A stretch of 64,000 nucleotides of DNA from an uncultured Planctomycetales bacterium (GCA_964542785.1 CAZIUK010000001.1:332701-396700), one strand, 5' to 3'. Shown: positions 6,746-27,892, counted from the first letter of the stretch. Notes: generated by a model from the letters alone, not told the origin. Translations and numbers: made by a program.

Positions 6746-8511
6746 CAAATAAACAGTTATCAATAATTTTAAAGTTGCGGGATGAAGCCTCAAAACGTCT
6801 TGAAGGCGTTAAAGGCAATTTGCAGAGGTTTGCCAATTCTTGGAAGAAGAACTGGCTTGCGATTACCGCTTCTGTGACAGCGGCTATCATGGCTCTGCGC
6901 AAGGCGTGGGAGCTTATGGAGCTTGGTGCGAAAGTTGAACAGCAGAAGCAGGCTTTTGAGAATCTTGCATCCTCGGTCGGGATGAGTTCGGAGAAGATCA
7001 TAGCGGATCTTCGCAAGATGTCCGGTGAGACTATGTCGACCGCACAGATCATGGAAAAAGCCTCGCAGGCAATGATCTTGGGTATCGACCCTACCAAACT
7101 TGCCAAGATGATGGAAATTTCAAGAGCTTCTGCCCGGGCGTTCGGAAAAGACGTCGGGTATATGTTCGAGAGTATTGCTATTGGTGTCGGCCGTCAGTCA
7201 AAACTCATTCTCGACAATTTGGGGATCATTGTCAGTGCGGGAGACGCATACGAAAAGTATGCGAAATCCATCGGTAAATCCGCAAAAGAATTAACCGAGC
7301 ATGAACGCAAACAAGCCTTTTTGAACGCTACGCTGGAAGCTGGTGAGCGGATCTTGCAGATGATAGACACTTCCACGATGACCAAGCTGGAAAAGATGCA
7401 GAAGCTGAAGGCTCAGTGGGAAGATTTTGCGGTTAAGGTCGGAGAAGCCCTGTGGCATGTGTTCGGTTTTCTTCAGGCGTTTATGAATCATCTTGTGACC
7501 GGTATTTTTACCGTTCTTGAGTTCGGTTCAGCGGCTGTCAAAGGTTTCGTTCAGGGCATCACCAACGCACTGAACGGCCTTTTGAGTGTAGGGATTGAGT
7601 TTTTCCAGAAGCTGATGGTTCCGCTGATTAAGTTTTATGACCTGCTTGGAAAACTTCCCGGCAATATCGGTGAGACTTACCGGCAGGCTTCTTTAGAGGT
7701 CAAAAAGTTTTCAGACAGCCTTGAGGAGAAAAAGATCAAGTTTAATGTCAGCGGTCTTACTCAGGGGTTAGATCAGGCACGGCAAGCGTTCAAACTTGCG
7801 GCTGAAGAAAGCGCACGTGACGCTATTGAGCAGTACGATCTTGTGTTTGCGAAGGTTCAGGATACAGGCGTTAAGACGGCAAAGGTTTTAAGAGATGTCG
7901 CCGGGCAGATCGGCGAAGGTGCTAAAGAAGCGTCAAAACAGTTCAGCGCAATGGAAGAATTCGCAAAACAGTCAGCACGTAATATGCAGAACGCTTTTTC
8001 CGAGTTTTTCTTTAAGGCGTTTACCGGTGAGCTTCGAAGCGTCAAAGAAGTGTTTGCGGATTTCGGGCGTGCGGTCTTGCAGATGATTTCAAATATTCTG
8101 GCGAAGCTGTTGCTTATCAAGATGTTTACCGCAATGGCCGGATCAAGCGGTCAGATTTTCGGCGTTCCTGTCGGCTCTTTATTCCACCGTGGCGGGATGG
8201 TCAAAAAACATCAAGGCGGTTTGATAAGGGCTCACAACGGTCTTGCTCCGGATGAGGTTCCAATTATCGCACAGACCGGTGAAGGCGTGCTTTCCCGCAG
8301 AGGCATGGACGCTTTGGGCGGATCAGACAACCTTAGAGCGTTAAACCGTGGCGAAGGTATTGGCGGTGGCGTGACTATCAATGTGAATCAGGTTATTCAG
8401 GCTTGGGACGCTCAGGACGTGTGGCGTAACCGCAGGATGCTTTCAAACGCTATTGCAGATGACATTTATAACAACGGAAAAATAAGGTCAGTTATCAGGA
8501 ATTACGCATGA
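6742..8511 (+). CDS. Tail tape measure protein
   Basis: 589 aa. It is highly alpha-helical with a hydrophobic central segment. Its position after the G/GT genes is conserved. Confidence 0.75.
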   Translation: MTNKQLSIILKLRDEASKRLEGVKGNLQRFANSWKKNWLAITASVTAAIMALRKAWELMELGAKVEQQKQAFENLASSVGMSSEKIIADLRKMSGETMSTAQIMEKASQAMILGIDPTKLAKMMEISRASARAFGKDVGYMFESIAIGVGRQSKLILDNLGIIVSAGDAYEKYAKSIGKSAKELTEHERKQAFLNATLEAGERILQMIDTSTMTKLEKMQKLKAQWEDFAVKVGEALWHVFGFLQAFMNHLVTGIFTVLEFGSAAVKGFVQGITNALNGLLSVGIEFFQKLMVPLIKFYDLLGKLPGNIGETYRQASLEVKKFSDSLEEKKIKFNVSGLTQGLDQARQAFKLAAEESARDAIEQYDLVFAKVQDTGVKTAKVLRDVAGQIGEGAKEASKQFSAMEEFAKQSARNMQNAFSEFFFKAFTGELRSVKEVFADFGRAVLQMISNILAKLLLIKMFTAMAGSSGQIFGVPVGSLFHRGGMVKKHQGGLIRAHNGLAPDEVPIIAQTGEGVLSRRGMDALGGSDNLRALNRGEGIGGGVTINVNQVIQAWDAQDVWRNRRMLSNAIADDIYNNGKIRSVIRNYA

Positions 8512-9457: not shown

Positions 9458-9861
9458 AGAAACTGATTGTCGAGAAGTACCTCGGTATTCCCTATAAGCA
9501 CAGGGGCAGGACGCTGGACGGTCTTGACTGCTGGGGGTTCCTGAAGCTGGTGTATGCCGATCTCGGGTTCAGGCTTTTTGATATTGAAAATCTCGAGTAC
9601 GAGAAAGTCTGGGGGCTTCGTGGCAAAGATTACTTCAGGGAAAACTACGAGAACGACTGGGAAAAAGTTTCAAACCCCGATGTTCTCGACGGCGTACTGT
9701 TTGTGAATTCACGGGGTGTTGCCAATCATGCGGGTGTTGTGTTTAAGAACAGGAAGTTTATCCACTGTTGCCGTCAGGGCGTTGTGGTTTCAAGGCTTGA
9801 TGATGAGAGCTGGAATAAAAAGATTGAGGGTTTTTACAGGTTAAGGAACAAAAAATGGTAG
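9334..9861 (+). CDS. Tail assembly protein K-like NlpC/P60 cysteine peptidase; the start is uncertain (possibly 9382) and the 5' end overlaps the L gene
   Basis: An NlpC/P60 active-site-like motif (LDGLDCWGF) is present. Position and size match lambda gpK. Confidence 0.6.
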   Translation: MRIRRSRINMRQNTTEMQTVGELPEVWRFPFGADTTDLHHVEKLIVEKYLGIPYKHRGRTLDGLDCWGFLKLVYADLGFRLFDIENLEYEKVWGLRGKDYFRENYENDWEKVSNPDVLDGVLFVNSRGVANHAGVVFKNRKFIHCCRQGVVVSRLDDESWNKKIEGFYRLRNKKW

Positions 9862-12800
9862 TTATACGGAACATAGACAATCCATTCAAACTGGAAGACG
9901 CACAGGTCAAGGAGCTTGCCTTCTCAAGGGAGAAGTCTTTGCGTTCTTTTCTTGATGAGTCAGGGTTTGATTATAAAGACAAACGTGTCATCGTTTCGGG
10001 AAAACGCATAAGCGATCTTGATTCTAAACTTGAAAACGGAGACGAGATTACTGTTATTCCCGAAGTGCAGGCTCCGGTTGTCGCTGTGATCTCGGCGATA
10101 GTGTCAGCCGTTTGGGCTTATGCGGTCGCACACCCTTTTCTGTTTACATTCTTTGTGCTGTCGATGGGTTATTCCATCTACCAGTACATGAATCAGCCGA
10201 GAATGCCTGATTTTAACCTTGGAAGCGGACCCGCTGGCGGGCTTGATGAAGGATCGCCTACTTACGGGTGGGACGGTGTACAGACTATACAGGAGGTGGG
10301 AGTACCTGTTGCTGTTGTGTACGGCGAGCATAAAATCGGCGGGAACATTATTAATCAGTTTCTTCATGACGATGGTGACAAGAATTACCTGAATGTTCTT
10401 CTCGCCCTTTGTGAAGGCGAAATCGAATCCATCGGGGATATCGAGATAAACAGCAACCCTATCGCCAATTTCGGTGGCGTTACTATTTATGACAAGCTCG
10501 GTGCTAATACCCAAACAATCATTCCGAATTTCGAGGATCTGCATAACCTTTACCCGGTTAATGTGAACCTTACGAAAGACAATCCTCATGTTTATACCAC
10601 TGTTGATTCGGATGTTGAAGCTTTCGAGATTCATTTAAGGCTTGGCAACGGTCTTTACCAACAGAGCGGTGGCGGTGGCATTTCAAGCTGGAGCGTAAGC
10701 TTCAGGGTTGAATATAAACTTCACACCGACCCGGATTATACCGATCTCGGTGAAACTACAATCTCGGCAAAATCACGGTCAACAGTCAGGCGCATATTCC
10801 GCAAAGAAGGTCTTGTTCCCGGTCAGTACGATATTCGTGTGACAAGGACAACAGATGATTCGTCTTTGGATCCGCTCAAGCAAGGCGATCTGATGTGGTT
10901 CCAGTTAGATGAAATCAAGACGGATGACTTGAGGTATCCAAACACTGCCCTTTTGGGACTTAAACTTCTGGCAACGGATCAGCTTTCGGGGTCTATGCCA
11001 AACATCACCTGTGTTGTAAAGGGGAGAAAAGTATCAGCACCGGATGTGCGTAACGCAGGAGTTCCGGTTAACTGGGAAGATTATTACTGGGATGGTTCGG
11101 ATTACCGTTTGCTTGTTGATGACACTCTGCTCGACTGGGACGGATCCACTTATGTGAATCAGTATTGCGCCAACCCTGTGTGGTGCTTGAAAGATTTTAT
11201 TACAAACAGCCGGTATGGTTTGGGTGAGTTTATATCCCCTACAAATCTGGATAACGCTTCACTCTTGGAGATGAGCCAGTATTGCGAGGAGAGGGTTCCT
11301 GACGGTCAGGGCGGTTTTGAGAAACGTTTCAGGATGGATGTCGTTATCGATTCCAACACTAAAGCGCTTGATATGCTTATCCAGCTTTGCGCCACGTTCA
11401 ATGCTATGCCTGTTTACAGCGCAGGCGGGTTGTCTTTCAAGATTGATAAGGAAGCAAACCCGACCCAGCTTTTCGGCATGGGAAATATTCTCAAGGATAC
11501 TTTCGCCCAGAGCTGGAAAACGCTCAAAGAGATTCCGAATGTTATCGAGATACAGTTTATGGATAAAGATAAAGGTTACCGTCAGGAGACGGTTTCATAT
11601 ATTGACGAGGATTCCCTATCTTCGGGTGAACCTATGCGTAAAAGCCAGATCAGGCTTTTTACGACACGCACAAGCTATGCGATCAGAGCGGCTCGATATG
11701 CTTTAAAGGTCGCACGGTATATCAACCGTTCAATCAGCTTTAAGACGGGCATTGACGCTATCGCCTGTCAGGCTGGGGATATTATTTCGATTTCGCATGA
11801 TGTTCCTCAGTGGGGTTTCTCGGGCAGGGTTCAGCCGGATTCAACAACTACGCTTATAAAACTTGACCGCACTATGGTTATTGAGGACGGCAAGTCATAT
11901 ATGATTCAGGTCAGGTTCGCTGATGATTCTATTGAGGAAAAACTTATTACTTCGCCAACCGGAGAGTATACAGAGGTCGAATGCGAAGCGTTCAGCAACC
12001 CACCGCAGGCGTATGACATATACGCTATCGGCGAGACGAACAAGGTCAAAAAGGATTTCCGTGTTGTGTCTATCCAGCGTGAAGGCACGAACGAATGTCA
12101 GATACAGGCTCTTGAGTATAACGAGAATGTTTATGACGATTCGGACATTATCCTTCCGAATAACAACTATTCTTCTCTGTCCTCGGAGATCCCCAATGTT
12201 GAGAATCTCAATTTGACCGAGGCTCTGATTAAGAAAGCAGACGGCACGATCGAGAACGCTATTGATGTCTGGTTCGATAAACCGAACGCCGCTTCTTATT
12301 ACGTCAAGACGTATGCCCGGGCAAAGATTTATATAAGTGATAACGGCGGAGCCAGCTGGGGCTTCAGGGGAGAGACCACCGGCACGCATTTTCAGATACT
12401 CGGCGATATTATTGATGATTACACCTACAAAGTCCGGGTTGTTTCAGTTGCGGATAACGGCGAGGAAGGCGATTTTGAAACCTCACCCACGCAGGAGATC
12501 ACCATTGTCGGTAAATCCGCACCGCCGTCAGATGTGACTTCGTTTCTGGTTAATCAGAACAGGGACATGCTTTATTTCGGTTGGACTGCGATCAGCGATG
12601 TTGACGTATGGGGTTATGAGATAAGGCGTGGGATTGATTGGGAAAGCGGTGAACTTATCACATTCCAGCAAGGCACTTCGTATTTAACAACCGATGTCAA
12701 ACGTGGCGTTGAGCAGAGTTACTGGATTAAGGCTATGGATACTTCGGGCAACTACTCAGAGAACGCCAAGGAAGCGATCGTAACTGTCAGCACGATTCCG

Positions 12801-13478
12801 TTCAGGAATATCATCGCCGAATATGAAGAACACCCCGATTGGCTGGGTACACTTACGAATTTAGAGAGAGACAGCCAGACGCTTATTATTTCAGATGGTT
12901 TTTTATCCGGAACATATGAAACGCCCATCAGGGATATCGGTTATGTGGCTACGGTTTATATCGGTATTGATGTGATTGCCTCATTATCAACCGGTAGACG
13001 CTTTAACAGCGACGGTACGTCACGTTTTGATGACAGCGTGTCTTATCGCTTTACAGGTCAGGAGACGCTTAGAGCGGCCAGTTTCAGGATAAGGACGTCT
13101 GAGGACAATGTCGTATGGAGTGACTGGGTTGATTATCAGGCTGGGGATTATTACTGCCGGTATTTTCAGATTGAGATGACGCTTGAGCGTGAGAACTTGG
13201 GCGACTACGTGACCTGTTCAACTCTCGCCTATTTCGGTGATCTTCCGGATGTGGACGAACACGGGAGCGATGAGGTTACGGTTGCTGATGGCGGCAAAGA
13301 AGTATTTTTCACAAAGACGTACCACGAAGAACCGAGCGTGCATATCGAGATCACATCCGGTGCGGGTATTTACGCAAGATTTGAGAGTAAATCGATCACG
13401 GGTTTTTTAGTCAAACTTTATAACGCACAGGGCGTGGTTCAGTCAGGAATGTTTGACTGGCACAGCCACGGCATTTAG
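9855..13478 (+). CDS. Tail tip / host specificity protein (gpJ-like), with an N-terminal gpI-like segment that carries a hydrophobic helix
   Basis: 1207 aa, the largest tail gene. It follows the M/L/K genes. The protein is beta-rich with FN3-like segments, and the N-terminal 120 aa contain a transmembrane-like helix. Confidence 0.7.
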   Translation: MVVIRNIDNPFKLEDAQVKELAFSREKSLRSFLDESGFDYKDKRVIVSGKRISDLDSKLENGDEITVIPEVQAPVVAVISAIVSAVWAYAVAHPFLFTFFVLSMGYSIYQYMNQPRMPDFNLGSGPAGGLDEGSPTYGWDGVQTIQEVGVPVAVVYGEHKIGGNIINQFLHDDGDKNYLNVLLALCEGEIESIGDIEINSNPIANFGGVTIYDKLGANTQTIIPNFEDLHNLYPVNVNLTKDNPHVYTTVDSDVEAFEIHLRLGNGLYQQSGGGGISSWSVSFRVEYKLHTDPDYTDLGETTISAKSRSTVRRIFRKEGLVPGQYDIRVTRTTDDSSLDPLKQGDLMWFQLDEIKTDDLRYPNTALLGLKLLATDQLSGSMPNITCVVKGRKVSAPDVRNAGVPVNWEDYYWDGSDYRLLVDDTLLDWDGSTYVNQYCANPVWCLKDFITNSRYGLGEFISPTNLDNASLLEMSQYCEERVPDGQGGFEKRFRMDVVIDSNTKALDMLIQLCATFNAMPVYSAGGLSFKIDKEANPTQLFGMGNILKDTFAQSWKTLKEIPNVIEIQFMDKDKGYRQETVSYIDEDSLSSGEPMRKSQIRLFTTRTSYAIRAARYALKVARYINRSISFKTGIDAIACQAGDIISISHDVPQWGFSGRVQPDSTTTLIKLDRTMVIEDGKSYMIQVRFADDSIEEKLITSPTGEYTEVECEAFSNPPQAYDIYAIGETNKVKKDFRVVSIQREGTNECQIQALEYNENVYDDSDIILPNNNYSSLSSEIPNVENLNLTEALIKKADGTIENAIDVWFDKPNAASYYVKTYARAKIYISDNGGASWGFRGETTGTHFQILGDIIDDYTYKVRVVSVADNGEEGDFETSPTQEITIVGKSAPPSDVTSFLVNQNRDMLYFGWTAISDVDVWGYEIRRGIDWESGELITFQQGTSYLTTDVKRGVEQSYWIKAMDTSGNYSENAKEAIVTVSTIPFRNIIAEYEEHPDWLGTLTNLERDSQTLIISDGFLSGTYETPIRDIGYVATVYIGIDVIASLSTGRRFNSDGTSRFDDSVSYRFTGQETLRAASFRIRTSEDNVVWSDWVDYQAGDYYCRYFQIEMTLERENLGDYVTCSTLAYFGDLPDVDEHGSDEVTVADGGKEVFFTKTYHEEPSVHIEITSGAGIYARFESKSITGFLVKLYNAQGVVQSGMFDWHSHGI

Positions 13479-13717: not shown

Positions 13718-13976
13718 ACAGAAAATTTCAGACGCAATGGCGTACATCGTTGTCCGTGGAGATATCGTTTTGAGGACTCCCCGCAAACGCCCTATGGTCT
13801 ACACCTGTGTCGAGCAGGCATATAACTACGCACAGAACCTTTTCATGCACGACGTTTGCTGGATCGAAACGCTTAGGGAGCATGGTGTTGAGCTTTACGA
13901 CATGAACGAGGTTGCTGAAAAGTACAAGAATAAGGAGGTGTCCAATGGCATGGGACAAGACGAAACCGGAAAATGA
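13698..13976 (+). CDS. Hypothetical small CxxC-containing protein
   Basis: 92 aa counted from the internal ATG that has an AAGGAG RBS. The sequence CHRC...C..C suggests a zinc-ribbon-like protein. Confidence 0.35.
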   Translation: MICHRCKQKISDAMAYIVVRGDIVLRTPRKRPMVYTCVEQAYNYAQNLFMHDVCWIETLREHGVELYDMNEVAEKYKNKEVSNGMGQDETGK

Positions 13977-14445
13977 CATGCTTTTAATCAACTTCCCGGC
14001 CGCTTGCCGTGCGAACTGGGACGCTCTGGAATTGCTGGCGGATCCCAGTTTGCAGATTACCAATGATAAAGTTGCCCCGGGTGCCGGTATCGAAGATACA
14101 AAACTGGCGCAGATTACTACCGCAAATAAAGTTCACGGTTCAGCTCTTACAGGTTTGGCAAGTGTGCCTTCAGCGGCTGGTGTTCTGCCTTCGGCTAATT
14201 CACCGAATAAGTTGAAGGCTGATGTCAGCGATACAACGCCGGAGTATTTGGACGGGTTAATCGATACAGCGGTGTTTCAGATATCAGGCAGTGACCAGTT
14301 GCAGTTAAAAGACGGCGGGGTTGGAACCGGTAAACTGGAAGGCGGAGCGGCTTCCCCCGGTAACAATAAATATTACGGAACGAACGAGTCCGGCACAAAA
14401 GGTTTTTTTGATTTTGGTGCCGGGACAGCGGTTTATGCCACGTAG
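13945..14445 (+). CDS. Putative tail fibre / virion-associated protein
   Basis: 167 aa from MAWDK, with RBS TAAGGAGG. The protein is Gly/Ala/Ser/Thr-rich and fibre-like, and it lies downstream of the J-like gene. Confidence 0.4.
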   Translation: MAWDKTKPENDMLLINFPAACRANWDALELLADPSLQITNDKVAPGAGIEDTKLAQITTANKVHGSALTGLASVPSAAGVLPSANSPNKLKADVSDTTPEYLDGLIDTAVFQISGSDQLQLKDGGVGTGKLEGGAASPGNNKYYGTNESGTKGFFDFGAGTAVYAT

Positions 14446-14453
14446 GAGTTGAT

Positions 14454-15179
14454 ATGGCGCATTTACTACCACCAAAACAATGTTCGGGCAATACGCCCTC
14501 TTGGACGGATCCGACTATTACGGATTTGACCACCGAGGTGCGTAAACCGCACATGGATGAGCTGAGGTCAATGCTGAACGCTGAGTTTACCCGCAGGGGT
14601 AAATCCACCGGCAGTTATACAGACCCGACTATAACAGCGTTGATTACTGAAGTCAGGAAAGTCCATGTTGATGAGTTGCGCTCAGAGCTTGCTCAGTGCA
14701 AGTCCGGCCGTGGCGAGTCAGGTTATTGCCCTGAGGATAATTCGGGCTGTATGGATTTTACCGACCCGACTATTACCGCCCTAGTTACCGAGGTCAGGGG
14801 TGTTCATTTCAGGGAAGCCAGAGACGCTGTTGAGGCTCTTATGACGAGCTGTATCTGCGAGACGGAGCAGTGCCAGTACTGTGCGGACTGCGGGTATCAC
14901 TATACGACCTGTTCGCATGCTTCTGTTGCCTGCGATGACCATAAATATTCTGAGTGTCATCACTCTATAAACCATTACTGGAATTGCGCCAGTATAAATT
15001 TACCGGCCGGAACAGCGCATCCGTATAAGTCAGCTAACCCGCCGGTGGCATGGGATGGATATGTTCCTTGGGATTGGTGTTCATACGCACCGCCCGGATC
15101 GATCTGGGGATCGTGTGAGTATCAAGGCGGTCATAATCATACGGATTGGAATTGTAAATGTAACCCTTATTCATGGTGA
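14454..15179 (+). CDS. Cys/His-rich protein with three TDPTITxLxTEVRKxHxDELRS repeats and a C-terminal Cys domain (13 Cys in about 110 aa); candidate substrate of the adjacent rSAM enzymes
   Basis: An AGGAG RBS precedes the start. The repeats begin at 14505, 14619 and 14760. Many Cys, His, Asp and Glu residues lie in the C-terminal 110 aa. Confidence 0.55.
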   Translation: MAHLLPPKQCSGNTPSWTDPTITDLTTEVRKPHMDELRSMLNAEFTRRGKSTGSYTDPTITALITEVRKVHVDELRSELAQCKSGRGESGYCPEDNSGCMDFTDPTITALVTEVRGVHFREARDAVEALMTSCICETEQCQYCADCGYHYTTCSHASVACDDHKYSECHHSINHYWNCASINLPAGTAHPYKSANPPVAWDGYVPWDWCSYAPPGSIWGSCEYQGGHNHTDWNCKCNPYSW

Positions 15180-15183
15180 TGAA

Positions 15184-15579
15184 ATGTTTAAAGACCAAAT
15201 GAAACCGCATAAATTGACGAAGGCTGTATCGGTTCGTGAAAAAGAGGACATGATAACCGAGCTGATTTACTGGGCGAAGAATAATTTAGATGACGGCAGT
15301 GTCGGGACGTTCACTCAAGGCAAGTTTCCCGATGTTGAGAGTTTTATTTCGGCGTTGCAGGAAGTGTATCAGGGACTTGGTGTTGAGGGCGTTAATGGCA
15401 ACACATCCGATTATCTGCTGATCATAGCCGGGGATAAAAAGAACAAGATTTATCTGTCGCATATTGCCCCATTGGATAAGGACAAGGCACAACTATTTAC
15501 GGACAGGCTGGGCATGGACGTGAAAGAAATAAGCGACTATTTAAGCAAATTAGATTGGAGAAAAGATGTCAGTCTTTGA
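15184..15579 (+). CDS. Hypothetical protein upstream of the rSAM trio (possible recognition or chaperone component); the track starts it at 15055, overlapping the upstream gene
   Basis: About 131 aa from MFKDQ. Its 3' end overlaps the start of rSAM-1. Confidence 0.4.
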   Translation: MFKDQMKPHKLTKAVSVREKEDMITELIYWAKNNLDDGSVGTFTQGKFPDVESFISALQEVYQGLGVEGVNGNTSDYLLIIAGDKKNKIYLSHIAPLDKDKAQLFTDRLGMDVKEISDYLSKLDWRKDVSL

Positions 15580-16783
15580 ACTGAAAAACTCACAAGCATG
15601 CGGTGACCTGCCTTCTCAGTGCAGGGACATCATAAAGCGGTATAAAGGCGACGGCATGTTCGATATTGATTCGATCACGAATGGCCGTCAGGAATATACC
15701 ACTGTCTATTTTTTAATGACTCAGGACTGCAATCTCAATTGCCCCTATTGTTATCAGCCAAAAGAGTTCAGGCAGAAGAATTCAGATATTCCGCAGAGCG
15801 TTATCGATAAGACGATGTCTTGGGTGTCCAAGACATTTGATGAACGTAAAGTTAAATTTAGCATATTCGGCGGTGAACCGTTCATGAATATCCCGATGGT
15901 CAAATACCTCTGCGACACGTATTGCATGTATCGGTACGTAGTTACGACAAACGGTCTTATTCTTCTCAATGATTCAGGTTTGCGGGACTGGGTATTAAAG
16001 CACAAGTATCACCTCAATCTCAGCGTGAGCATATCTGCCCTCAAGAGAGTGTTGGGAAAGTCATATTTGAACAAGGCAAAGCCTGTTCTTGATTTGGTAA
16101 AGGCTAACGGTGGCGATGTTCACTTCGTGGTTGATGATCCGGAATGCCCTATGGTTTATGAGGAGATCGTCTGGCTGTATGAATACGGCGTGCCGGTTGT
16201 GCGGGTTTCTTCTGCTCGGCACTGGGATATGGTCAAGAACAAGAATGAGCAGTTTAAGGAGCTGTTTAAGCGCATAGCTGATTACGTTTATTTCAGCGGT
16301 GAGCCGAAGTTCAACCGGTCGCAGTGGGATATTGCGTTTAAGAACAATATCTACCGCAAATTAAAGGGCATTGATTTGAAAGATGTCCCGCCTACGTTCT
16401 GCGGGTGCGGGTATCTTTACATCGCTGTTAATAACAAAGGTGAGATTTTCCCCTGCGACTTCTTTGCTAACTATCCGGAGTTTAAGATCGGTGATGTTGA
16501 GACTGGGTTTAATGATACAGCCTACTTTTTCAAGAAGATGGGTGACTGGATTGATGACCTTTACGAGCATTGCCGTGGGTGTGAGGTATGCCTTGACGGT
16601 GATATACGCTGTTGCCCTCGGGCGATGTGTTTGGCTGAAAATTACACGGTTACAGGCAATCCGCTTAAACCGGCACCGAATCATTGCTGGGCAAATAGGA
16701 TCGAGGCTTCAACGCATGAATACATCGCACGCAAAGCCATTGAGACTGGCATAGATGAGATTTATCACGGAGGTCGCAAATGA
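15566..16783 (+). CDS. Radical SAM/SPASM-domain maturase 1
   Basis: The N-terminal CNLNCPYC motif is a CxxxCxxC cluster. The C-terminus carries additional Cys clusters (CGCGY...PCDFF..CRGCEVC...CC) typical of SPASM/twitch auxiliary Fe-S domains. Confidence 0.75.
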   Translation: MSVFELKNSQACGDLPSQCRDIIKRYKGDGMFDIDSITNGRQEYTTVYFLMTQDCNLNCPYCYQPKEFRQKNSDIPQSVIDKTMSWVSKTFDERKVKFSIFGGEPFMNIPMVKYLCDTYCMYRYVVTTNGLILLNDSGLRDWVLKHKYHLNLSVSISALKRVLGKSYLNKAKPVLDLVKANGGDVHFVVDDPECPMVYEEIVWLYEYGVPVVRVSSARHWDMVKNKNEQFKELFKRIADYVYFSGEPKFNRSQWDIAFKNNIYRKLKGIDLKDVPPTFCGCGYLYIAVNNKGEIFPCDFFANYPEFKIGDVETGFNDTAYFFKKMGDWIDDLYEHCRGCEVCLDGDIRCCPRAMCLAENYTVTGNPLKPAPNHCWANRIEASTHEYIARKAIETGIDEIYHGGRK

Positions 16784-17865
16784 GGATACCTACGTATAAA
16801 TCAGTTTATCTGTACTTAACGCATGCGTGCAACGTCCACTGTTCGTTTTGTTACAGGAAGGGTTTGTTCGACCGCAATCCTATGTCAACGCTTGGACCCG
16901 CAAGTATGTCTATTAAGACGGCGGATGACATTCTTGATTTTTGTTTTACGAAGCTGAAACTCGACCCCAAGTTTACGATCTACTTCTGGGGCGGTGAGCC
17001 GACTATCAACTTCAAGGTGATTAAGCATGTTATGGAAAAGTATCCGCAAATGCAGTTTCACACCAACACCAACGGATCTTTGGTTAAGGGTGAGATGCTG
17101 GATTACTTTTTGGGTAATCGAAGCATTGGTCTGACATGGTCGTTTGGCAATTGCTATGAGAAGTACGGCGGAGTTCGCCAGAAAGCCGAGGCTGAACCCG
17201 GCATGTTGAAACTCGTTCGGGATAATCCCAACCATAACGTAAACTTTATGGTCGTTAGATACGACAAGCTCGAAGAAGATTTCGATTACATCGCCAACAA
17301 TATAACGCACAACATCACGATCGACCTTGCTACCCGCTTTGACCATAAGGAAGAAGATCTGGAACGGTTTGCCGAGCAGTATTTCAAGTTGCTTCAGAAA
17401 TATAAGCGTGAGTCAGAGCTGTATAAGACACTTAATCCGGCACTGCATTCAAACGCTTATGTCAGGGAGTTCGGGTTAAAGGCTCAGGTCAAGGACTTCC
17501 ACTTTTGCCGGACAGGATTGGAGCGTTTGTTTATCGATACTGCGGGCGGTATATGGCAATGCGACAACATGTATATCTGCCAGCATAACAAACTGGGAAC
17601 GGTCTACGACGGCATTGATTATTCAAAGCTGGGTTATGTTTGGGATATTGACGAGAACCGTGAGAAGTATTTAGGCAGGTTCTGTGAGAATTGCGAGCTG
17701 TACCGGCAGTGCCCACGCAATAAGTGTCTGGGATTAAACCTCGAGCATATGGGCGATATGTTTAAACCCGAACCCGGTTACTGCGCCATGAATAAGGTTT
17801 TGTTTAAGGTTATCAAAAAATATATAGAGCTTGAAAGGAGTTACAGATGTCAGAACAAGAATTAG
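16780..17865 (+). CDS. Radical SAM/SPASM-domain maturase 2
   Basis: The N-terminal CNVHCSFC motif is a CxxxCxxC cluster. The C-terminus has Cys clusters (CRTG...QCDN...CENCELYRQCPRNKC). An ATGA overlap joins it to rSAM-1. Confidence 0.75.
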   Translation: MRIPTYKSVYLYLTHACNVHCSFCYRKGLFDRNPMSTLGPASMSIKTADDILDFCFTKLKLDPKFTIYFWGGEPTINFKVIKHVMEKYPQMQFHTNTNGSLVKGEMLDYFLGNRSIGLTWSFGNCYEKYGGVRQKAEAEPGMLKLVRDNPNHNVNFMVVRYDKLEEDFDYIANNITHNITIDLATRFDHKEEDLERFAEQYFKLLQKYKRESELYKTLNPALHSNAYVREFGLKAQVKDFHFCRTGLERLFIDTAGGIWQCDNMYICQHNKLGTVYDGIDYSKLGYVWDIDENREKYLGRFCENCELYRQCPRNKCLGLNLEHMGDMFKPEPGYCAMNKVLFKVIKKYIELERSYRCQNKN

Positions 17866-19016
17866 TAGCCGGTAATTTAAAGAACGAGATTAAAAGCGTT
17901 GATCTGTTCATTACCGAAAAGTGCAACATGAAGTGCGATTACTGTTTTCATCCAAAGACCGGGGCTGTGCTTTCGGTTGAGCAAGGCAAAAAGATACTCG
18001 ATCGGTTGAAACAGTTAAGTCCGGAGTCAATGCAGATCACTTTCTTCGGGGGAGAGCCGTTGCTTTATCCGAAGACGGTTTTGGAGCTTGCGGAATACGC
18101 ACGCAATCTCTGGCCACCGGATGATAAGGGTCGCCACACTTCGACCTTTTCGATCTCAACAAACGGAACGTATTTTGATGAGGATGTTTTTAAGAGGTTT
18201 GCCGAACTTGGCATGGCGGTTCAGGTCAGCTGTGATGGCGATGAGATCACGCATACCGAATACCGCCACGGAGATTACAACCTTATCGTTGAGAATATGA
18301 AGAAGATATTAAAGATTAAGCCGGACATGAGCGTGCGTATGACTTTTACGCCCAAGACTGTCGGCAGGCTTTCGATCAATATCAAGTATCTTCATCAGGA
18401 GATCGGCGTTACGAAGATCATGCACCACGCTGTTATCGAAGATGACTGGACGGATGACGCTGTTGAGCAGTACGCCTATCAGCTTGGTCAGGTTTACCAT
18501 TACAGGCGTTACTGCAAGAGGCAGGATATCCCGCTTCATATCGCCTTCATTGATAAACCGCTCAAGATTGTAAACGACGAATTGCCGCCTGAGAAGGAGT
18601 TTTGCCAAGCCGGTAAAAGCTACATCGCCGTGCTGGATAATGGCGACGTTTATCCCTGCCACAGAGCCGCAAGCGCAAGGATCTTTAAGCTGGGCAACAT
18701 CTTCAACGAGGTGCCGTTTATCAGGGGGATATTCTTGAATATAGATAAGGAGTACACCGGCTGTGCGAAGCACTGCAAGCACGCAAAAACCTGCCACAGT
18801 TGCGTCATTACGCATTACAAAGTCAATCAGGAGCTTACGGTTCCTGTGACGAAGTATTGCAAGATATGTGCTGTTGAAAGCGATCAGGCTTTGGGTTTCC
18901 TGCCGGTTGAGCTTGCGGATCGGCGGGAACGTATGCTTTTCAAGATCGGGCAGGTTTTGGTTGATGTCGCAAAGCAAGGTGAGGAAATTTTACAGGCATT
19001 AAAAAAGGAGGACTGA
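17847..19016 (+). CDS. Radical SAM/SPASM-domain maturase 3
   Basis: The N-terminal motif is CNMKCDYC. The C-terminal Cys clusters are CQAG...PCHR...CAKHCKHAKTCHSC. Its start overlaps rSAM-2. Confidence 0.75.
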   Translation: MSEQELVAGNLKNEIKSVDLFITEKCNMKCDYCFHPKTGAVLSVEQGKKILDRLKQLSPESMQITFFGGEPLLYPKTVLELAEYARNLWPPDDKGRHTSTFSISTNGTYFDEDVFKRFAELGMAVQVSCDGDEITHTEYRHGDYNLIVENMKKILKIKPDMSVRMTFTPKTVGRLSINIKYLHQEIGVTKIMHHAVIEDDWTDDAVEQYAYQLGQVYHYRRYCKRQDIPLHIAFIDKPLKIVNDELPPEKEFCQAGKSYIAVLDNGDVYPCHRAASARIFKLGNIFNEVPFIRGIFLNIDKEYTGCAKHCKHAKTCHSCVITHYKVNQELTVPVTKYCKICAVESDQALGFLPVELADRRERMLFKIGQVLVDVAKQGEEILQALKKED

Positions 19017-19018
19017 AA

Positions 19019-19309
19019 ATGTCAAAAGTATTAGCACATGAAGAAATAATTATCAGTACTGCAGTTAAGCAGTTAACCCCGGCGATATATAACCCCTCGG
19101 AAGGGGCGCCAGCGGTGTTCGCCATTATCCATGCCGAGGACGGACCTATGAGGTATTTCGTGAACGGTCAGAATCCTTCGCAGTCGTCAGGGGCGTTGCT
19201 TGAGGACGGCGATATTGTTGAGCTTCCGTCTATTTACCACATAAAGGATTTTAGGGTTGTCCGGTCAGGTAATGACGACGGTAAATTAACGGTCACGTAT
19301 GAAGACTAA
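19019..19309 (+). CDS. Hypothetical protein
   Basis: 96 aa. An RBS-like AAGGAGGA lies upstream. Confidence 0.4.
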   Translation: MSKVLAHEEIIISTAVKQLTPAIYNPSEGAPAVFAIIHAEDGPMRYFVNGQNPSQSSGALLEDGDIVELPSIYHIKDFRVVRSGNDDGKLTVTYED

Positions 19310-19321
19310 GGAGGTTAAAAA

Positions 19322-19873
19322 ATGCATCTTAATCATAAAAAATCAAGCAGGATTGTAAACAGGATCACTGAGATAAATACCACTGGTGGTTTGCCGAAAA
19401 CAGGTCAGATGATGTCTTGGTATCCGTTTGATGACGGTTATTATCAAATCGGTCACCCTATTAACTGGGGTCAAAGATTCGTTGATAACGGAAACGGAAC
19501 CGTGACCGATATGGCTACTGGGTTGATTTGGGTTAAAGATCCAGCGGCCGCTGGTTTTGGATCTCCAATGCAATGGTATAACGCCCTTGATGCGTGCGAG
19601 AATTTGAACTATGCGGGTTACAGCGATTGGCGATTGCCGAATGTTTTTGAAATAGCATCAATTAATGATTATGGAAGATACGATCCTGCCTTAGATACTT
19701 CCTATTTTGCTCCGTGTCCAGATCAATGGGGCGTTTGGTGGTCATCGACTATTTGCGCTCCATGGAGTGACGGGGCTTGGGCTGTGTATGCCTATGACGG
19801 TTATTTAACTACGTACGGAATAATCTGGGGTGATCAGTGTTATGTTCGCCCTGTCCGTGGCGGTCAATCATAA
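19322..19873 (+). CDS. DUF1566 (Lcl C-terminal-like) domain protein; possible tail fibre tip or adhesin module
   Basis: It contains the motifs TGLIWVKD...DWRLPN..E...YWSST, which are characteristic of DUF1566. Confidence 0.5.
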   Translation: MHLNHKKSSRIVNRITEINTTGGLPKTGQMMSWYPFDDGYYQIGHPINWGQRFVDNGNGTVTDMATGLIWVKDPAAAGFGSPMQWYNALDACENLNYAGYSDWRLPNVFEIASINDYGRYDPALDTSYFAPCPDQWGVWWSSTICAPWSDGAWAVYAYDGYLTTYGIIWGDQCYVRPVRGGQS

Positions 19874-20379: not shown

Positions 20380-20625
20380 ATGGAAATTATTATGGATTAT
20401 CTCACGGGGAATATTCCTCAAATCATTACAGCGGTTGTCGGCATTGGGGCGGTCTGGCTGGTGCTTTCAAAGGCACTCAATGTGCTCAAAGAAATCAGCG
20501 AATTGCTCAACGCCATCGTCGTAGCTTTTGCCGATAAAAAGCTCACAAAAGATGAGGTGGATACTATCGTCAAAGAGGCGAAAGACGTGCCTTTGGCGGT
20601 CAAAGCGTTGATCAAGAAAGCCTGA
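20380..20625 (+). CDS. Small membrane protein, holin-like (single N-terminal transmembrane segment with a charged C-terminus)
   Basis: 81 aa with RBS AGGGAGGGA. The predicted transmembrane segment is IITAVVGIGAVWLVL. Confidence 0.35.
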   Translation: MEIIMDYLTGNIPQIITAVVGIGAVWLVLSKALNVLKEISELLNAIVVAFADKKLTKDEVDTIVKEAKDVPLAVKALIKKA

Positions 20626-21849: not shown

Positions 21850-22023
21850 ATGTCTCTCAAGAAATATTTGACCGTACGTCAAGTTGTTGAGGAGTTGGGA
21901 TTGACTGAATATAGAATTCGTCAATTGATTCGCGAGAAACAAATCCGCGCAACTAAGATAGGGCAGTGGCGAATTAAGCCGGAAGATTTGGAAGATTTTA
22001 TCAATCGACGAACAAATCGATAA
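21850..22023 (+). CDS. Excisionase/AlpA-type helix-turn-helix DNA-binding protein
   Basis: 57 aa (MSLKKYLTVRQVVEELGLTEYRIRQLIREKQIRATKIG..). The motif LTxxQVAELLGVSxxTIYRWxxxG is characteristic of excisionase-family HTH proteins. The gene lies 18 nt upstream of hsdM. Confidence 0.6.
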   Translation: MSLKKYLTVRQVVEELGLTEYRIRQLIREKQIRATKIGQWRIKPEDLEDFINRRTNR

Positions 22024-22040
22024 ATTTATAAGGAATCATT

Positions 22041-23622
22041 ATGGTGAATAATCATTCAAAGTTATCAAAGGAACAAGAGCGCGCCGAACTGCACCGAGCC
22101 ATTTGGCAAATTGCCAATGACTTGCGTGGCAGTGTCGACGGTTGGGATTTTAAGCAATATGTTTTGGGGATGCTTTTTTATCGGTTCATTAGCGAGAACT
22201 TGACGAACTATATCAATGCCGATGAGCGTCGCACCGGCAACAAAGATTTTGATTATACAACGCTTTCCGACAAAGAAGCTGAGTTCGGGCGTGCTGATAC
22301 GGTTAAAGAAAAAGGGTTTTATATTTTACCGAGTGAACTTTTTGTAAACGTGACCAAAAAGGCACGTAACAATCCTAACCTTAACGAAACTCTTGCCGGT
22401 ATCTTTCGTGACATTGAAAATTCGGCAAAAGGTACCGACAGCGAAGATGACCTCAAAGGGTTATTTGATGACTTGGATGTAAACTCAACGAAGCTGGGCA
22501 ATACTGTTGAGAAAAGAAATCAGAGACTTGTAAAACTTTTAGAAGCCATAGGCGGACTTCGTTTAGGAGATTATTCTGGCAACACAATAGATGCGTTTGG
22601 TGATGCGTATGAGTTTTTGATGACCATGTATGCCTCAAATGCCGGTAAGTCTGGAGGAGAATTTTTCACGCCTCAGGAAGTCAGCGAGCTTTTGGCTGAG
22701 ATCGCAACCGTTGGAAAGAAGGAAGTCAACAAAGTATATGATCCCGCTTGTGGATCAGGTTCACTGCTTCTTAAGTTTGCGAAGGTTCTTGGTAAAGGAA
22801 AAGTCAGACAAGGATTCTTTGGGCAAGAGATCAATCTTACGACATACAACCTTTGCCGTATCAATATGTTTTTGCATGATATCAATTATGAGAAATTTGA
22901 CATTGCTCACGGTGATACCCTGACCGATCCAAAGCACTGGGATGATGAGCCGTTTGACGCTATTGTTTCTAATCCACCCTACTCTATTAAATGGGAAGGT
23001 GACGCCAATCCTATTTTGATAAATGACCCCCGTTTTTCACCTGCGGGTGTGTTGGCACCCAAAAGTAAAGCAGATCTTGCATTTACTATGCACATGCTTT
23101 CCTGGCTGTCTACAAGCGGGACAGCGGCTATTGTTGAGTTCCCCGGTGTTCTCTATCGTGGTGGCGCAGAAAAGAAAATCCGCAAATATTTAATTGATAA
23201 CAACTATGTTGATACGGTAATTCAGCTTCCGCCTGACCTCTTTTTCGGGACGACAATTGCCACCTGCATTATTGTTATCAAGAAAAGCAAGAAAGATAAT
23301 AAAACACTTTTCATCGATGCCTCGGCTGAGTTTGTTCGTGGTGGTAATAAAAATAAATTGACGGAAACAAATCGATCCAAAATTTTAGAATCCTTTACAG
23401 ACAGAAAAAATAAAGCGCATTTTGCGAAGCTTGTCGACAATAAGACGATTGCCGAAAATGAATACAATATTTCGGTATCGAGTTATGTCGTTGCTGAAGA
23501 TAAGCGTGAAGTAATTGATATTCAGGTGCTCAATAAAGAAATTACTCAGATTGTAAAGCGTCAGCAAGAATTGCGTTCTGCGATTGATGAGATCGTGAAT
23601 GATATTGAAGGTGCGAAACAGC

Positions 23623-23630
<8 letters not shown>
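22041..23630 (+). CDS. hsdM: Type I restriction-modification system, N6-adenine DNA methyltransferase subunit M
   Basis: 529 aa. It carries the NPPY motif (SNPPYSIKW) and a SAM-binding fold, with an N-terminal HsdM-type domain. Confidence 0.85.
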
Positions 23631-24823
<1,193 letters not shown>

Positions 24824-24834
<11 letters not shown>

Positions 24835-27800
24835 TCATAAATATGATCTAGTCGCCCAAAATCCGCATAGCACGGTTGTGGCAGAATATACCCCTGAGTA
24901 TGGGGCAAGAAAAAAGCGTGCTGAGCAGTATCAAAGTGAGGCGGAACTTGAGCAGGCGTTTATCGAACAGCTTGAATTGCAGGCTTATGAGCGTTTGTCT
25001 ATTTCCTCAGAGGAGGGGTTAAAACAAAATTTACGCAAGCAATTGGAAAAACTCAATGACTATGCGTTTAGCGATTCAGAATGGGAGCAATTCTTCGTAG
25101 GAGAATTGGCAAATCCTAATCAGAGTATTGTTGAGAAAACAACGACGATTCAGGAAGATCATATTAAGAATCTCACCCGTGATGACGGCACAGTAAAGAA
25201 TATTTATTTACTGGATAAGCAAAGTATTCACAACAATAGTTTGCAGGTTATTAATCAATATGCCATTGACGATGGCAAGAGACCGAACCGCTATGATGTG
25301 ACGGTATTGGTGAATGGGTTGCCGTTGGTGCATATCGAACTTAAGCGTCGAGGGGTAGCGATTCAGGAAGCATTTAATCAGATTAATCGATATCAGAGGG
25401 AGAGCTTTTGGGCATCAAGCGGGCTATTTGAATATGTGCAATTGTTTGTTATTTCCAACGGAACGCATACCAAATATTACAGCAACACCACACGCTCGGA
25501 GCATCTTAAAGAAATCAGTGGAAACAAAGTAAGGAAAGGAAAACGCTCAAGCAATAGTTTTGAGTTTACGAGCTGGTGGGCAGATGCGACAAATAAGCCT
25601 ATTGCGGACTTGATGGATTTTGCCAAAACTTTTTTTGCCAAGCATACACTTCTTAATATTTTGACACGTTATTGTGTTTTTACCTCAGAGAAACAGCTTT
25701 TGGCTATGCGTCCTTACCAGATTGTAGCTACTGAGAAGATTTTAAACAGAATCACGGTAAGTACGAATTATAAAAAACTCGGCACAATCGATGCGGGTGG
25801 ATATATCTGGCATACCACAGGATCTGGAAAGACGTTGACGAGCTTTAAAGCCTCACAGCTTGCAAGCAAACTGCCGGGTATAGATAAGGTCTTATTCGTT
25901 GTTGATCGCAAAGATCTGGATTATCAAACAATGCGGGAGTATGACAAGTTTGAAAAAGGTGCGGCTAACGGCAACACCAGCACAGCGATATTAAAGCGAC
26001 AACTTGAAGATCCTAATGCACGCATCATTATCACCACTATCCAGAAATTAGACCGTTTCATAAAACGTAATGGTGAACATGAAATTTTCAAAGGGCATAC
26101 TGTGCTTATTTTTGACGAGTGCCATCGCTCCCAGTTTGGCGATATGCATGGTGGCATTACAAAAGCGTTTAAGAATTATCATTTGTTTGGTTTCACCGGA
26201 ACCCCTATTTTCGCTATCAATGCTTCAACAAGCGGTAGACCAGATTTAAAAACTACCCAGCAGGCTTTTGGCGACAAGCTCCACACTTATACCATTGTTG
26301 ACGCTATTGCAGACAAGAATGTTTTACCGTTCAAGGTAGATTTTATTTCCACAATGAAAGAAAGAGAAGATATTCCTGATAAGAAGGTAAGCGATATTGA
26401 CCGTGAGAAGGCTCTTGCTGATCCGATTCGTATCGCCAATAACGTTAAGTATATTCGTGAGCATTTTGACCAGAAAACGAAACGGAATAGTTTTTATAAA
26501 TTAAAAGACCGCAGATTAGCGGGTTTCAATTCTATCTTTGCCGTTTCGTCGATTGACGTGGCTAAAAAATATTATGCCGAATTTAAGAAGCAACTTGCGG
26601 ATTTGCCGAGTGATAAACAGCTTAAAGTGGCGACCATTTACAGCTTTGGTGTGAATGAAGAGGATGTTGATGGTTTAATTGATGATGAAAATCCTGAAGA
26701 CACAAGCGGATTGGACGCAAGCTCAAGAGACTTTCTGGACAATGCGATTAGAGACTACAACGCAATGTTCGGCACATCGTACGACACCTCGTCTGATAAG
26801 TTTCAGAATTATTACAAAGACCTTAGTGAGCGAGTGAAGAATCGAGAGGTTGATATTCTAATCGTCGTTAATATGTTTTTGACTGGATTTGACGCAACAA
26901 CCCTCAATACGCTTTGGGTTGATAAGAATTTGCGATTGCACGGATTGCTTCAAGCGTATTCACGCACTAATCGTATTTTGAATACTATTAAGACGTTCGG
27001 GAATATTGTTTGTTTCCGGAATTTAGAAAAAGCGACCAATGAATCCATTGCTCTTTTTGGCGACAAGGAAGCCAGCGGGATTGTGCTCTTAAAATCGTAT
27101 GATGAATATTACAACGGCTACAAAGACGGCAACAAGGAAGTGCGTGGATATAAAAGTCTGATTGAAGAGCTGTTAGATCGATTTCCTGTTGGTGAGCGGA
27201 TCTTGGGCGAGCAAAATCAGAAAGGTTTTATCAGGCTTTACGGTGCCATTTTGCGTGTGCGGAATATATTGGTCACTTTTGATGAGTTTACCGGGAACGA
27301 AATCTTAACGGAACGTGATGTGCAGGATTATCACAGTGCATATATTGATCTGTACAAAGAATTGCGAAAAACCGGTGATGATGAGAAAGAAAATATCAAT
27401 GATGATTTAGTTTTTGAGATGGAGTTGATCAAGCAAATTGAGATCAATATCGATTACATTCTAGCTCTTATTAGAAAGTATCATGCTGATCATACGAAAA
27501 ACCGTGAAATCTTGGTTGATATTAATAAGGCAATTGATTCAAGCGTTGAGTTGCGCAACAAGAAAGATCTTATTAATCAGTTTATTACGTCACTTGATGT
27601 TGGATCTTCTATTGATGATGAATGGCAGGAATATGTTAAACAGAAAAAGACGGAAGAACTTGAGGCGATCATTACTGATGAAAATCTTGATCGCGAAGCA
27701 ACGTATAAGTTTATGCGCAATGCGTTTCGGGATGGAAGCGTTGCATCGACCGGTACAGCTATTGCCAAGGTTCTGCCTCCGGTGTCACGTTTTTCTCAGA

Positions 27801-27892
27801 CCGGCGAGCGCACTAAAAAGCGAGAGAGTGTTATTGAAAAACTAACCAGATTCTTTGAGCGGTTTTTTGATATCTCGAATGATGAGGTATAG
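24824..27892 (+). CDS. hsdR: Type I R-M restriction subunit R (SF2 helicase/endonuclease)
   Basis: 1022 aa. It has Walker A (TTGSGKTLT) and DEAD-box (FDECHRSQ) motifs plus an N-terminal nuclease-like domain. Confidence 0.85.

Follow-up and report, generated by a model that had tools for sequence, protein, structure and literature searches.

What do three consecutive genes for radical S-adenosylmethionine (rSAM) enzymes of the SPASM type do in the tail-fiber module of a prophage? Such enzymes are known as maturases of small secreted peptides and of one enzyme subunit, QhpC. The question is raised by a 64,000-nucleotide stretch of DNA (hereafter, the window) from an uncultured Planctomycetales bacterium (GCA_964542785.1, CAZIUK010000001.1:332701-396700), in which a gene for a cysteine-rich triple-repeat protein is followed by an rSAM trio (the cassette, within positions 14454-19873). 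A reading of this sequence by itself (hereafter, the original prediction) held that the cassette is a phage-borne system that cross-links a virion or receptor-binding protein or else produces a secreted peptide; every open reading frame (ORF) that it listed was found where it had been placed. Here, we report a comparative analysis of the cassette across phage genomes, which leads us to regard the Cys-rich protein as the likely, albeit putative, substrate of the rSAM enzymes.

The main evidence is the company that the enzymes keep. We gathered 146 loci (designated by L numbers) by searching collections of viruses, genomes and metagenomes and by looking up contigs, and treated as informative the 67 phage loci in which the sequence downstream of the Cys-rich gene extends for at least 3.7 kb. 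In all 67, rSAM genes lie directly downstream of that gene, and in 65 the gene order is identical (window-family cassettes); a collinear recurrence of this extent far exceeds chance. The arrangements comprise a gene for a 131-amino acid (aa) protein plus three rSAM genes (48 loci), three rSAM genes without the 131-aa gene (11 loci), the first and third rSAM genes only (6 loci) and variants (2 loci). The reverse comparison gave the same picture: three out of three homologs of the third enzyme, on long contigs that the search with the Cys-rich protein had missed, adjoin an upstream Cys-rich homolog of 254-299 aa. The cassette is carried by diverse backbones, namely, a lambda-J siphovirus in the window, a second Omnitrophota-phage lineage with another tail tip (the L030 group), a PhageMin_Tail siphovirus (L001), and myovirus baseplates with gp25, PAAR and base_V (L003, L058-L060), and it is found at the distal end of these unrelated tail modules. 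Both the constant partnership and the tail-fiber or baseplate location foreseen in the original prediction are thus borne out in several unrelated phage types, and neither a cassette devoid of the Cys-rich protein nor one outside a phage context, which that prediction had named as observations that would speak against it, was encountered. The pair of Cys-rich and rSAM genes alone is universal, the other genes of the neighborhood being lineage-specific.

The first of the three enzymes (rSAM1; 405 aa, 15566-16783) is encoded by a gene that overlaps the second (rSAM2; 361 aa, 16780-17865) by 4 nucleotides (nt), and the latter overlaps the third (rSAM3; 389 aa, 17847-19016) by 19 nt; all three are on the plus strand, as are the other window genes listed below with coordinates up to 19873. 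The scores against the Pfam Radical_SAM model (PF04055, cut-off 29.5 bits) are 33.5, 27.6 and 64.6 bits, respectively, with rSAM2 slightly under the cut-off; rSAM1 also matches Fer4_12. Each enzyme contains an invariant CxxxCxxC triad, C55/C59/C62 in rSAM1 (36 orthologs), C17/C21/C24 in rSAM2 (30) and C26/C30/C33 in rSAM3 (31). For the C-terminal region, we searched for the SPASM motif C...Gx4C...CxxCx5Cx3-4C...C, predicted to bind two auxiliary [4Fe-4S] clusters, and found seven invariant or nearly invariant cysteines, including the Gx4C element, in each enzyme across 30-36 distinct orthologs (C279, C297, C336, C339, C350, C355 and C374 in rSAM1; C243, C261, C302, C305, C311, C316 and C335 in rSAM2). 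Among the SPASM models, TIGR04085 is passed by rSAM1 (29.5 versus 27 bits) and just missed by rSAM2 (21.8 versus 27), and PF13186 is passed by rSAM3 (23 versus 21.5). The three overlapping rSAM/SPASM genes of the original prediction are therefore what the conserved cysteines indicate. The enzymes are ancient paralogs, with mutual identities of 22-26%. rSAM1 and rSAM3, the best conserved of the three, are present in every window-family cassette, and rSAM2 is an optional member that is missing from L001, L046, L058, L124 and L125.

The type of chemistry can be approached through the closest relatives. In NCBIfam, each of the three enzymes scores best against PapB, followed by the SCIFF, CcpM, Nif11, CXXX-repeat and QhpD maturases, and the best solved structure is CteB (rSAM3 versus 5wgg at 2e-20), in line with the peptide- or protein-cross-linking type originally suggested. 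The best models represent maturases that form thioethers in Cys-rich peptides. The alignments start at CteB residues 91-102 (residue 91 for rSAM3), so that the three enzymes lack the recognition element (RRE) for RiPPs (peptides made on the ribosome and modified after translation) that is present in CteB and PapB. For rSAM1, rSAM2 and rSAM3, respectively, the scores are 105.1, 101.4 and 179.8 bits against PapB (NF047865, cut-off 340), 62, 48 and 107 bits against the SCIFF maturase (TIGR03974, cut-off 425), with no SCIFF peptide present, and 53.6, 64.7 and 80.9 bits against QhpD (TIGR03906, cut-off 453), with no dehydrogenase genes in any locus inspected. All three match phrog_1802, and rSAM2 and rSAM3 show weak matches to the YhhB cyclophane maturase model. 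The rSAM3 family consists of 75 homolog clusters at E<=9e-52, followed by a gap down to the SCIFF maturases at 3e-23, and true SCIFF maturases show identities of at most 29%. Going by these profile matches, the enzymes belong to the rSAM superfamily and to the SPASM group, and to no curated maturase family. The closest matches to rSAM3 in the phage database are MT835702.1 and similar human fecal records; the best of them and the one inspected, MT835702.1 (L145, labeled 'Bacteriophage sp.', from human feces), was discarded as an ordinary SCIFF locus irrelevant to the cassette; it encodes a 46-aa SCIFF peptide, a SCIFF maturase and SecDF and is probably bacterial DNA under a phage label.

Phages are known to carry unexplained rSAM genes, with 11-12 in each of the Campylobacter phages CP220 and CPt10 (PMC2853527), and the trio might likewise be a set of anSME/AtsB-type or metabolic 'moron' genes that have nothing to do with the Cys-rich protein. 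We find this scarcely credible. The anSME model (TIGR03942) gives 39.6 bits for rSAM1 and 69.6 bits for rSAM3 versus a cut-off of 349 and does not appear in the list of the 25 top-scoring families for rSAM2, so that the ordinary anSME homologs that would have undone the original prediction are not what the cassette encodes. Furthermore, the conserved partner of the rSAM genes is the Cys-rich protein and not a sulfatase, the cassette genes overlap and are translationally coupled, and the co-occurrence and collinearity in 67 of 67 loci span unrelated phage backbones.

The partner itself is a protein of 241 aa (14454-15179) with 52 homolog clusters, in which the three repeats and the 13-cysteine C-terminal domain of the original prediction were readily counted. 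The repeats (nt 14502-14600, 14616-14714 and 14757-14852; residues 17-49, 55-87 and 102-133) are 33 residues in length, share pairwise identities of 50-64% and follow the pattern TDPTITAxxTxxRKVHxDELR; the last 109 residues (nt 14850-15176) make up the Cys-rich domain. There are 17 cysteines, 13 of them from residue 133 on, and 13 histidines. Among 89 distinct sequences, conservation of at least 97% was observed for C92, D95, C133, C135, E136, E138, C140, Y142, C143, D145, C146, G147, C160, C168, C178, W206, W218, W232, C234, C236 and P238, and all four invariant acidic residues past residue 90 are located 2-3 residues C-terminal to an invariant cysteine. The Cys-rich proteins of the loci end in NP(Y/F)(S/T)W. 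An AlphaFold2 model is confident for the repeat domain, with block means of the predicted local distance difference test (pLDDT) of 69-94, mostly above 84, and depicts, three times over, an extended segment that leads into a helix; for the Cys-rich domain, confidence is low (pLDDT 31-58). Searches with the protein produced no match to a Pfam (even at E<=10), NCBIfam or PHROG family, no sequence or profile match in the PDB, no fold match at E<=0.001 in the PDB or BFVD (Foldseek with the AlphaFold2 model) and no tblastn match among 50,697 phage records. One homolog has a precomputed match to PF27469, a model outside the Pfam copy that we searched.

A conserved N-terminus, a Cys-rich C-terminal 'core' that varies between cassettes and dedicated rSAM/SPASM enzymes, whose best hidden Markov models (HMMs) are those of RiPP maturases, conform to RiPP logic, and the repeats could accordingly be viewed as a leader, with the cross-linked Cys-rich part set free (e.g., upon lysis) to serve as a toxin, bacteriocin or signaling peptide. 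We consider such a product unlikely for several reasons. Among the conserved cassette genes of the window, L001-L004 and L058-L061, none encodes a peptidase or transporter domain; the cassette versions inspected have no peptidase or exporter gene in common, and the cassette hence differs from the general definition of a RiPP gene cluster, in which a leader protease and export are encoded alongside. The enzymes have no RRE, the 'core' amounts to about 110 highly conserved residues, and the gene keeps a constant position beside a fiber-like gene with a conserved tail. Finally, the repeat region is generic: a search with it alone retrieved 1815 representative clusters of proteins, and many of the matches listed have it at the very C-terminus; it is thus not an rSAM-specific leader. 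In 10 long proteins sampled, it is mostly C-terminal and accompanied by Laminin_G_3 (lectin-like), beta-helix/NosD, Ig-like, metallopeptidase or leucine-rich repeat domains, in the absence of rSAM genes. The secreted-peptide alternative of the original prediction is weakened by both the lack of a conserved protease or exporter and the generic nature of the repeats. The repeat domain (P0140-P0284) had no match in the Pfam copy searched, and P0163 as a query for viral contigs likewise returned none.

Variant cassettes, which do not figure in the original prediction, add another line of evidence. Triple-repeat proteins that lack a signal peptide have Cys-rich tails of several unrelated kinds and, where context is available, are encoded in phage fiber/baseplate clusters and followed by rSAM genes. 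In one locus (L061), a fiber ending in AVYAP comes first, the next protein has a CxCxC/Asp-rich tail, and an ORF of 348 aa and an rSAM trio with one B12-binding member follow; another (L146) combines a fiber ending in ATYAP, a protein with a Cys/Asp-rich tail and a single rSAM/SPASM gene beside a diversity-generating retroelement. That retroelement (L146, 2337-5501), which comprises a reverse transcriptase with YMDD and a 112-aa ORF resembling Avd, is preceded by a 412-aa protein that, judged by eye from motifs alone (for instance, GNVWEWV), resembles C-type lectins or the formylglycine-generating enzyme. Triple-repeat proteins with signal peptides (P0048, P0049, P0050) have no rSAM and adjoin thiol-disulfide oxidoreductases. 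These rSAM-free loci (L062, 1522-3027; L063, 1343-2869; L142, 3763-4461) have GILT/Thioredoxin_4/DsbA-like neighbors and a partner ending in AYYAP or PTYAP. In L062, the partner contains tail-fiber-type GASGTWPISISG repeats and is at the contig edge, so the rSAM-free loci may also be prophage ends.

The presence of rSAM enzymes, of thiol oxidoreductases or of neither therefore covaries with the kind of Cys-rich tail and with where that tail is located, and the simplest reading of this pattern would be that the tail needs enzymatic cross-linking, with disulfides formed if it is exported and rSAM chemistry applied if it is a cytoplasmic phage protein. The same pattern bears on the possibility that the Cys-rich domain is a ferredoxin-like Fe-S electron donor for the phage rSAM enzymes, which do require a reductant; the dense invariant cysteines with CxxCxxC spacing would suit that role. 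Nevertheless, the tails of the variant cassettes are entirely different, the fused triple-repeat module occurs elsewhere with signal peptides or in multi-domain proteins and is paired with the fiber tail, and no similarity to ferredoxin families was detected, which renders this explanation highly improbable. A second Cys-rich homolog follows the three rSAM genes of L115 (within 5 kb of 7001-7705), and this cassette may accordingly have two substrates.

Where, then, would the Cys-rich protein act? The gene directly upstream in the window encodes a fiber-like protein of 177 aa (13912-14445 from a TTG at 13912, with a probable start at ATG 13945, MAWDKTKP...) that ends in GFFDFGAGTAVYAT and has no family match. 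The stop codon of this gene shares nucleotides with the ribosome-binding site (AGGAG) of the Cys-rich gene, and the gap between the two genes is 2-22 nt in nearly all lineages. The genes in this slot fall into at least 10 unrelated sequence clusters of 99-363 aa, and in L061 and L062 they encode proteins with tail-fiber-type repeats. The C-terminus Y-[AGS]-x, a feature not mentioned in the original prediction, recurs in 101 of the 107 upstream genes, across 6 of 10 unrelated clusters (AVYAT in the window; ATYAE, SVYAA, AYYAA, VTYGA, AIYAP and AVYAP in other loci), and is often preceded by W/F-x-D/N-G-F/Y-P. When all further ORFs of 100 aa or more from the loci were considered, it was confined to the Cys-rich proteins, one unrelated ORF and an ORF near the triple-repeat gene of L062 and L063. 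In a Patescibacteria metagenome-assembled genome (MAG; L142), a 163-aa protein ending in PTYAP directly precedes a secreted triple-repeat protein that has no Cys-rich domain, which argues that the tail tracks the triple-repeat domain; its presence in the rSAM-free loci L062, L063 and L142 further indicates that it is independent of rSAM chemistry. We propose that the fiber-like protein may be the docking partner of the Cys-rich protein.

The position directly downstream of a fiber-like gene is also the classical place of fiber assembly proteins of the gp38/Tfa class, and the Cys-rich protein might accordingly be an assembly factor, or else a Zn or Fe-S tip protein, that is not cross-linked at all, with the enzymes acting elsewhere. 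Their targets would then be the Tyr-x-x end of the fiber (through a cyclophane or a PqqE-type C-C/C-O bond) or a glycan. The aromatic-x-x C-terminus of the fiber, together with the (Y/F)-(S/T)-W end of the Cys-rich protein and the YhhB matches of rSAM2 and rSAM3, is compatible with the former target, glycosyltransferases near the cassette on large myovirus contigs with the latter, and the CxCx4CxxCxxC array and 13 histidines with metal binding. On the other side, the x-Y-A-x tail is found in the three rSAM-free loci, the Cys-rich tail changes in nature and location together with the enzyme type, and the YhhB scores are much lower than those of the thioether maturases. On balance, this alternative as a whole, including the other targets of the enzymes, appears rather unlikely. 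On the large myovirus contigs, the genes after the cassette comprise glycosyltransferases, sugar-nucleotide enzymes (an epimerase and a DegT aminotransferase) and methyltransferases (L003, 14185-20798; L058, 10187-17137; L059/L060, 10700-14400), and L059 and L060 have two further rSAM genes of other types; these sugar, methyl and extra rSAM genes are hints of what may be additional virion or DNA modification.

The reading that we favor, with confidence a little above even, sees the Cys-rich protein as a distal fiber accessory, namely, a cap or tip made of a single chain and docked on the fiber, with a Cys-rich knob cross-linked by dedicated rSAM enzymes. Each repeat would contribute an extended TDPTITAxxT segment followed by a helix starting with HxxELR, and the triple-repeat domain would dock on the C-terminal x-Tyr-Ala/Gly/Ser-x-COOH of the fiber, possibly with one repeat for each of the tails of a fiber trimer. 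In the cytoplasm of an anaerobic host, the rSAM/SPASM enzymes would install redox-stable covalent cross-links in the domain rich in Cys, Asp and Glu, which AlphaFold2 does not fold with confidence. These would most likely be thioethers that join a cysteine sulfur to a carbon in a residue close by, and the invariant motifs C92-x-x-D95, C133-x-x-E136, C135-x-x-E138 and C143-x-D145 are candidate sites. PapB joins a cysteine to the carbon beside the carboxylate of an Asp or Glu that is C-terminal to it, with flexible spacing (PMC12373016), and the invariant Cys-then-acidic order of the Cys-rich protein is the donor-then-acceptor order that PapB requires. We put the chances about equal, for and against, that the putative cross-links are thioethers, probably from Cys to Asp or Glu, and the assignment as a putative virion fiber cap seems to us similarly balanced. 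A bolder version, in which the enzymes staple the fiber tip through inter-protein thioethers between cap cysteines and the fiber in addition to the intra-domain links, each repeat holding one x-Y-A-x tail, strikes us as very unlikely.

Several observations weigh against the cross-linked cap. Docking is deduced from gene neighborhood alone, and the Cys-rich domain is the most conserved part of the protein across distant phages, unlike typical hypervariable receptor-binding tips. The CxCx4CxxCxxC array and the many histidines could equally form a metal site. In the Cys-rich protein, the columns that vary with the presence of rSAM2 are limited to S97, A159 and P214, none of them Cys or acidic, as judged from only three independent two-rSAM lineages. 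With respect to the enzymes, neither an RRE nor any other recognizable substrate-recognition domain was found in rSAM1-3, and, with scores far under all curated cut-offs, the chemistry cannot be transferred by family membership.

Comparison with characterized systems places the proposed mechanism between several precedents. QhpD is an rSAM/SPASM enzyme that introduces several intra-protein Cys-to-Asp/Glu thioethers into the small Cys-rich QhpC, a subunit of a larger assembly. The QhpD model is among the matches of all three cassette enzymes, a likeness assessed by HMM score only; unlike QhpD, they score 54-81 versus 453 bits, are viral and multiple, and are not accompanied by QhpA, QhpB, QhpC or dehydrogenase genes. 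PapB/PapA (freyrasin) and further ranthipeptide or sactipeptide systems, among them CteB/SCIFF, share with the cassette a SPASM rSAM enzyme with two auxiliary clusters and a Cys-rich ribosomal substrate, which in the cassette is predicted, and PapA and the cassette protein share the arrangement of a Cys donor and then an Asp/Glu acceptor, here in the form of invariant acidic residues 2-3 positions on. In contrast to PapB and CteB, the cassette enzymes have no RRE and score 101-180 versus 340 bits; in place of a short peptide with a leader, the putative substrate is a protein of 241 aa whose N-terminal domain is folded; and the setting is a phage tail-fiber module with one to three ancient paralogous enzymes per substrate and no protease or exporter.

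Like the genes for T2/S16 gp38, lambda Tfa and Mu U, the Cys-rich gene is directly downstream of a fiber or fiber-like gene, with which it is translationally coupled, and the proposed placement of a single chain on a trimeric fiber end is a further likeness, although the Cys-rich protein has no sequence or fold homology to these proteins. To our knowledge, none of the three requires rSAM enzymes or covalent cross-links. Among cultured phages, the PHROG 1802 rSAM proteins of Erwinia jumbo phages and the Campylobacter CP220 group are only about 25% identical to the cassette enzymes. In Erwinia phage vB_EamM_ChrisDB (L144; NC_031126.1, 142049-147510), a virion structural protein (gp189) is followed by an oppositely oriented small ORF (gp188), gp187 (131 aa, 20 cysteines in CSxxCSG-type repeats), gp186 (72 aa, a similar N-terminus, 4 cysteines), gp185 and the rSAM genes gp184 and gp183, the latter with SPASM-like cysteines. 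Unlike the cassette protein, the small Cys-rich proteins with CxxxC repeats are devoid of a triple repeat, and an x-Y-A-x tail is missing from the protein upstream; still, gp183-gp189 has the appearance of an analog of the cassette, so far unannotated, in the genome of a cultured phage. The literature that we found does not describe the functions of these and related rSAM genes. Nor did our literature search, which covered phage rSAM, tail fiber, thioether, RiPP and Omnitrophota prophage topics, yield any description of a tail-fiber protein matured by an rSAM enzyme or of a tail module with three rSAM/SPASM genes, as the original prediction had surmised.

The remaining genes of the neighborhood are of narrower distribution. 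The small overlapping ORF of the original prediction proved to be a real gene in part: a 131-aa protein is encoded from ATG 15184 (15184-15579), with a starting Met that is invariant in 10 homologs, and the longer ORF from 15055 is merely an overlapping frame of the upstream gene. The 131-aa protein is confined to the Omnitrophota-phage lineages of the cassette. Downstream of rSAM3 are genes for a 96-aa protein (19019-19309), 44-96% identical and collinear in at least 40 loci, restricted in its co-conservation with the cassette to the Omnitrophota-phage lineages and without a family match in Pfam, NCBIfam or PHROGs, and for an Lcl_C (DUF1566) protein of 183 aa (19322-19873; PF07603, 6e-27) that is collinear in the same lineages and is a probable lectin-like fiber or adhesin component.

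The prophage that harbors the cassette can be delineated from PHROGs and family profile matches. Window positions 1 to about 21700 correspond to a lambda-like siphovirus structural module, in the order portal fragment, protease, scaffold, major head protein, tail terminator, a protein in the tail-tube position (a "minor tail protein" in PHROGs), tape measure, gpM/L/K-like proteins and a J-like protein. The latter is a central tail fiber/host-specificity protein of 1207 aa (9855-13478; PF24801 FNIII-A_GpJ, 6e-21; PF13550, 7e-16; phrog_31 'central tail fiber J', 1e-159) that provides context and is outside the conserved cassette. It is followed by a 76-aa ORF, the fiber-like, Cys-rich, 131-aa, rSAM1-3, 96-aa and Lcl_C/DUF1566 genes, so that the cassette is placed between the J-like gene and the lysis end. 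An ORF of 81 aa (20380-20625) that has a single hydrophobic segment could be a holin, and no recognizable endolysin was seen between the fiber genes and the prophage end in the window. Near 22 kb, the G+C content drops from about 0.45-0.50 to about 0.39-0.42, where an excisionase-like helix-turn-helix (HTH) gene and a type I restriction-modification system start. The 57-aa HTH ORF (21850-22023) marks the probable right prophage end, which the restriction-modification system (22041-27892) directly adjoins; its hsdS gene (23599-24834) encodes short tandem amino acid repeats between the two target-recognition halves, possibly a length-variable spacer. The window is part of a 646-kb contig, and its proteins are annotated merely as hypothetical, 4Fe-4S-binding or radical SAM. 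The closest genomic copies are nearly all in Candidatus Omnitrophota MAGs, with two labeled Planctomycetales and one Saccharibacteria, and a further one, 79% identical, is part of a prophage of Ca. Velamenicoccus archaeovorus LiM, the genome of which is complete (NZ_CP019384.1, 1851632-1872366). This organism is reportedly maintained as an anaerobic enrichment (PMC13153191).

We rate the system as a known enzyme class with a new substrate type in a new biological setting: an rSAM/SPASM family apparently dedicated to a phage host-recognition protein, which would be a new role for this class. The means of virion stabilization that we know of are mainly disulfides, metal sites and autocatalytic isopeptides; if the proposed mechanism is correct, thioethers or related cross-links installed by enzymes would join them, and, in the event that the links also staple the cap to the fiber, this would be the first enzyme-installed covalent bond holding a phage tail organelle together. 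Such chemistry suggests a solution for phages of strict anaerobes, the particles of which assemble in a reducing cytoplasm and face reducing habitats that make disulfides unreliable. Enzymes that act on a folded protein without an RRE could also become protein-stapling tools. The pairing of the triple repeat with the x-Y-A-x tail is possibly an additional, new docking module; it points to a so far undescribed means of protein docking, found in about 1800 protein clusters, which, under the stapling scenario, would be widespread in phages and in cell-surface proteins of Patescibacteria and their relatives. More broadly, the cassette may help explain the puzzling rSAM genes in cultured phages, for which the Erwinia jumbo-phage cluster would be a good test case.

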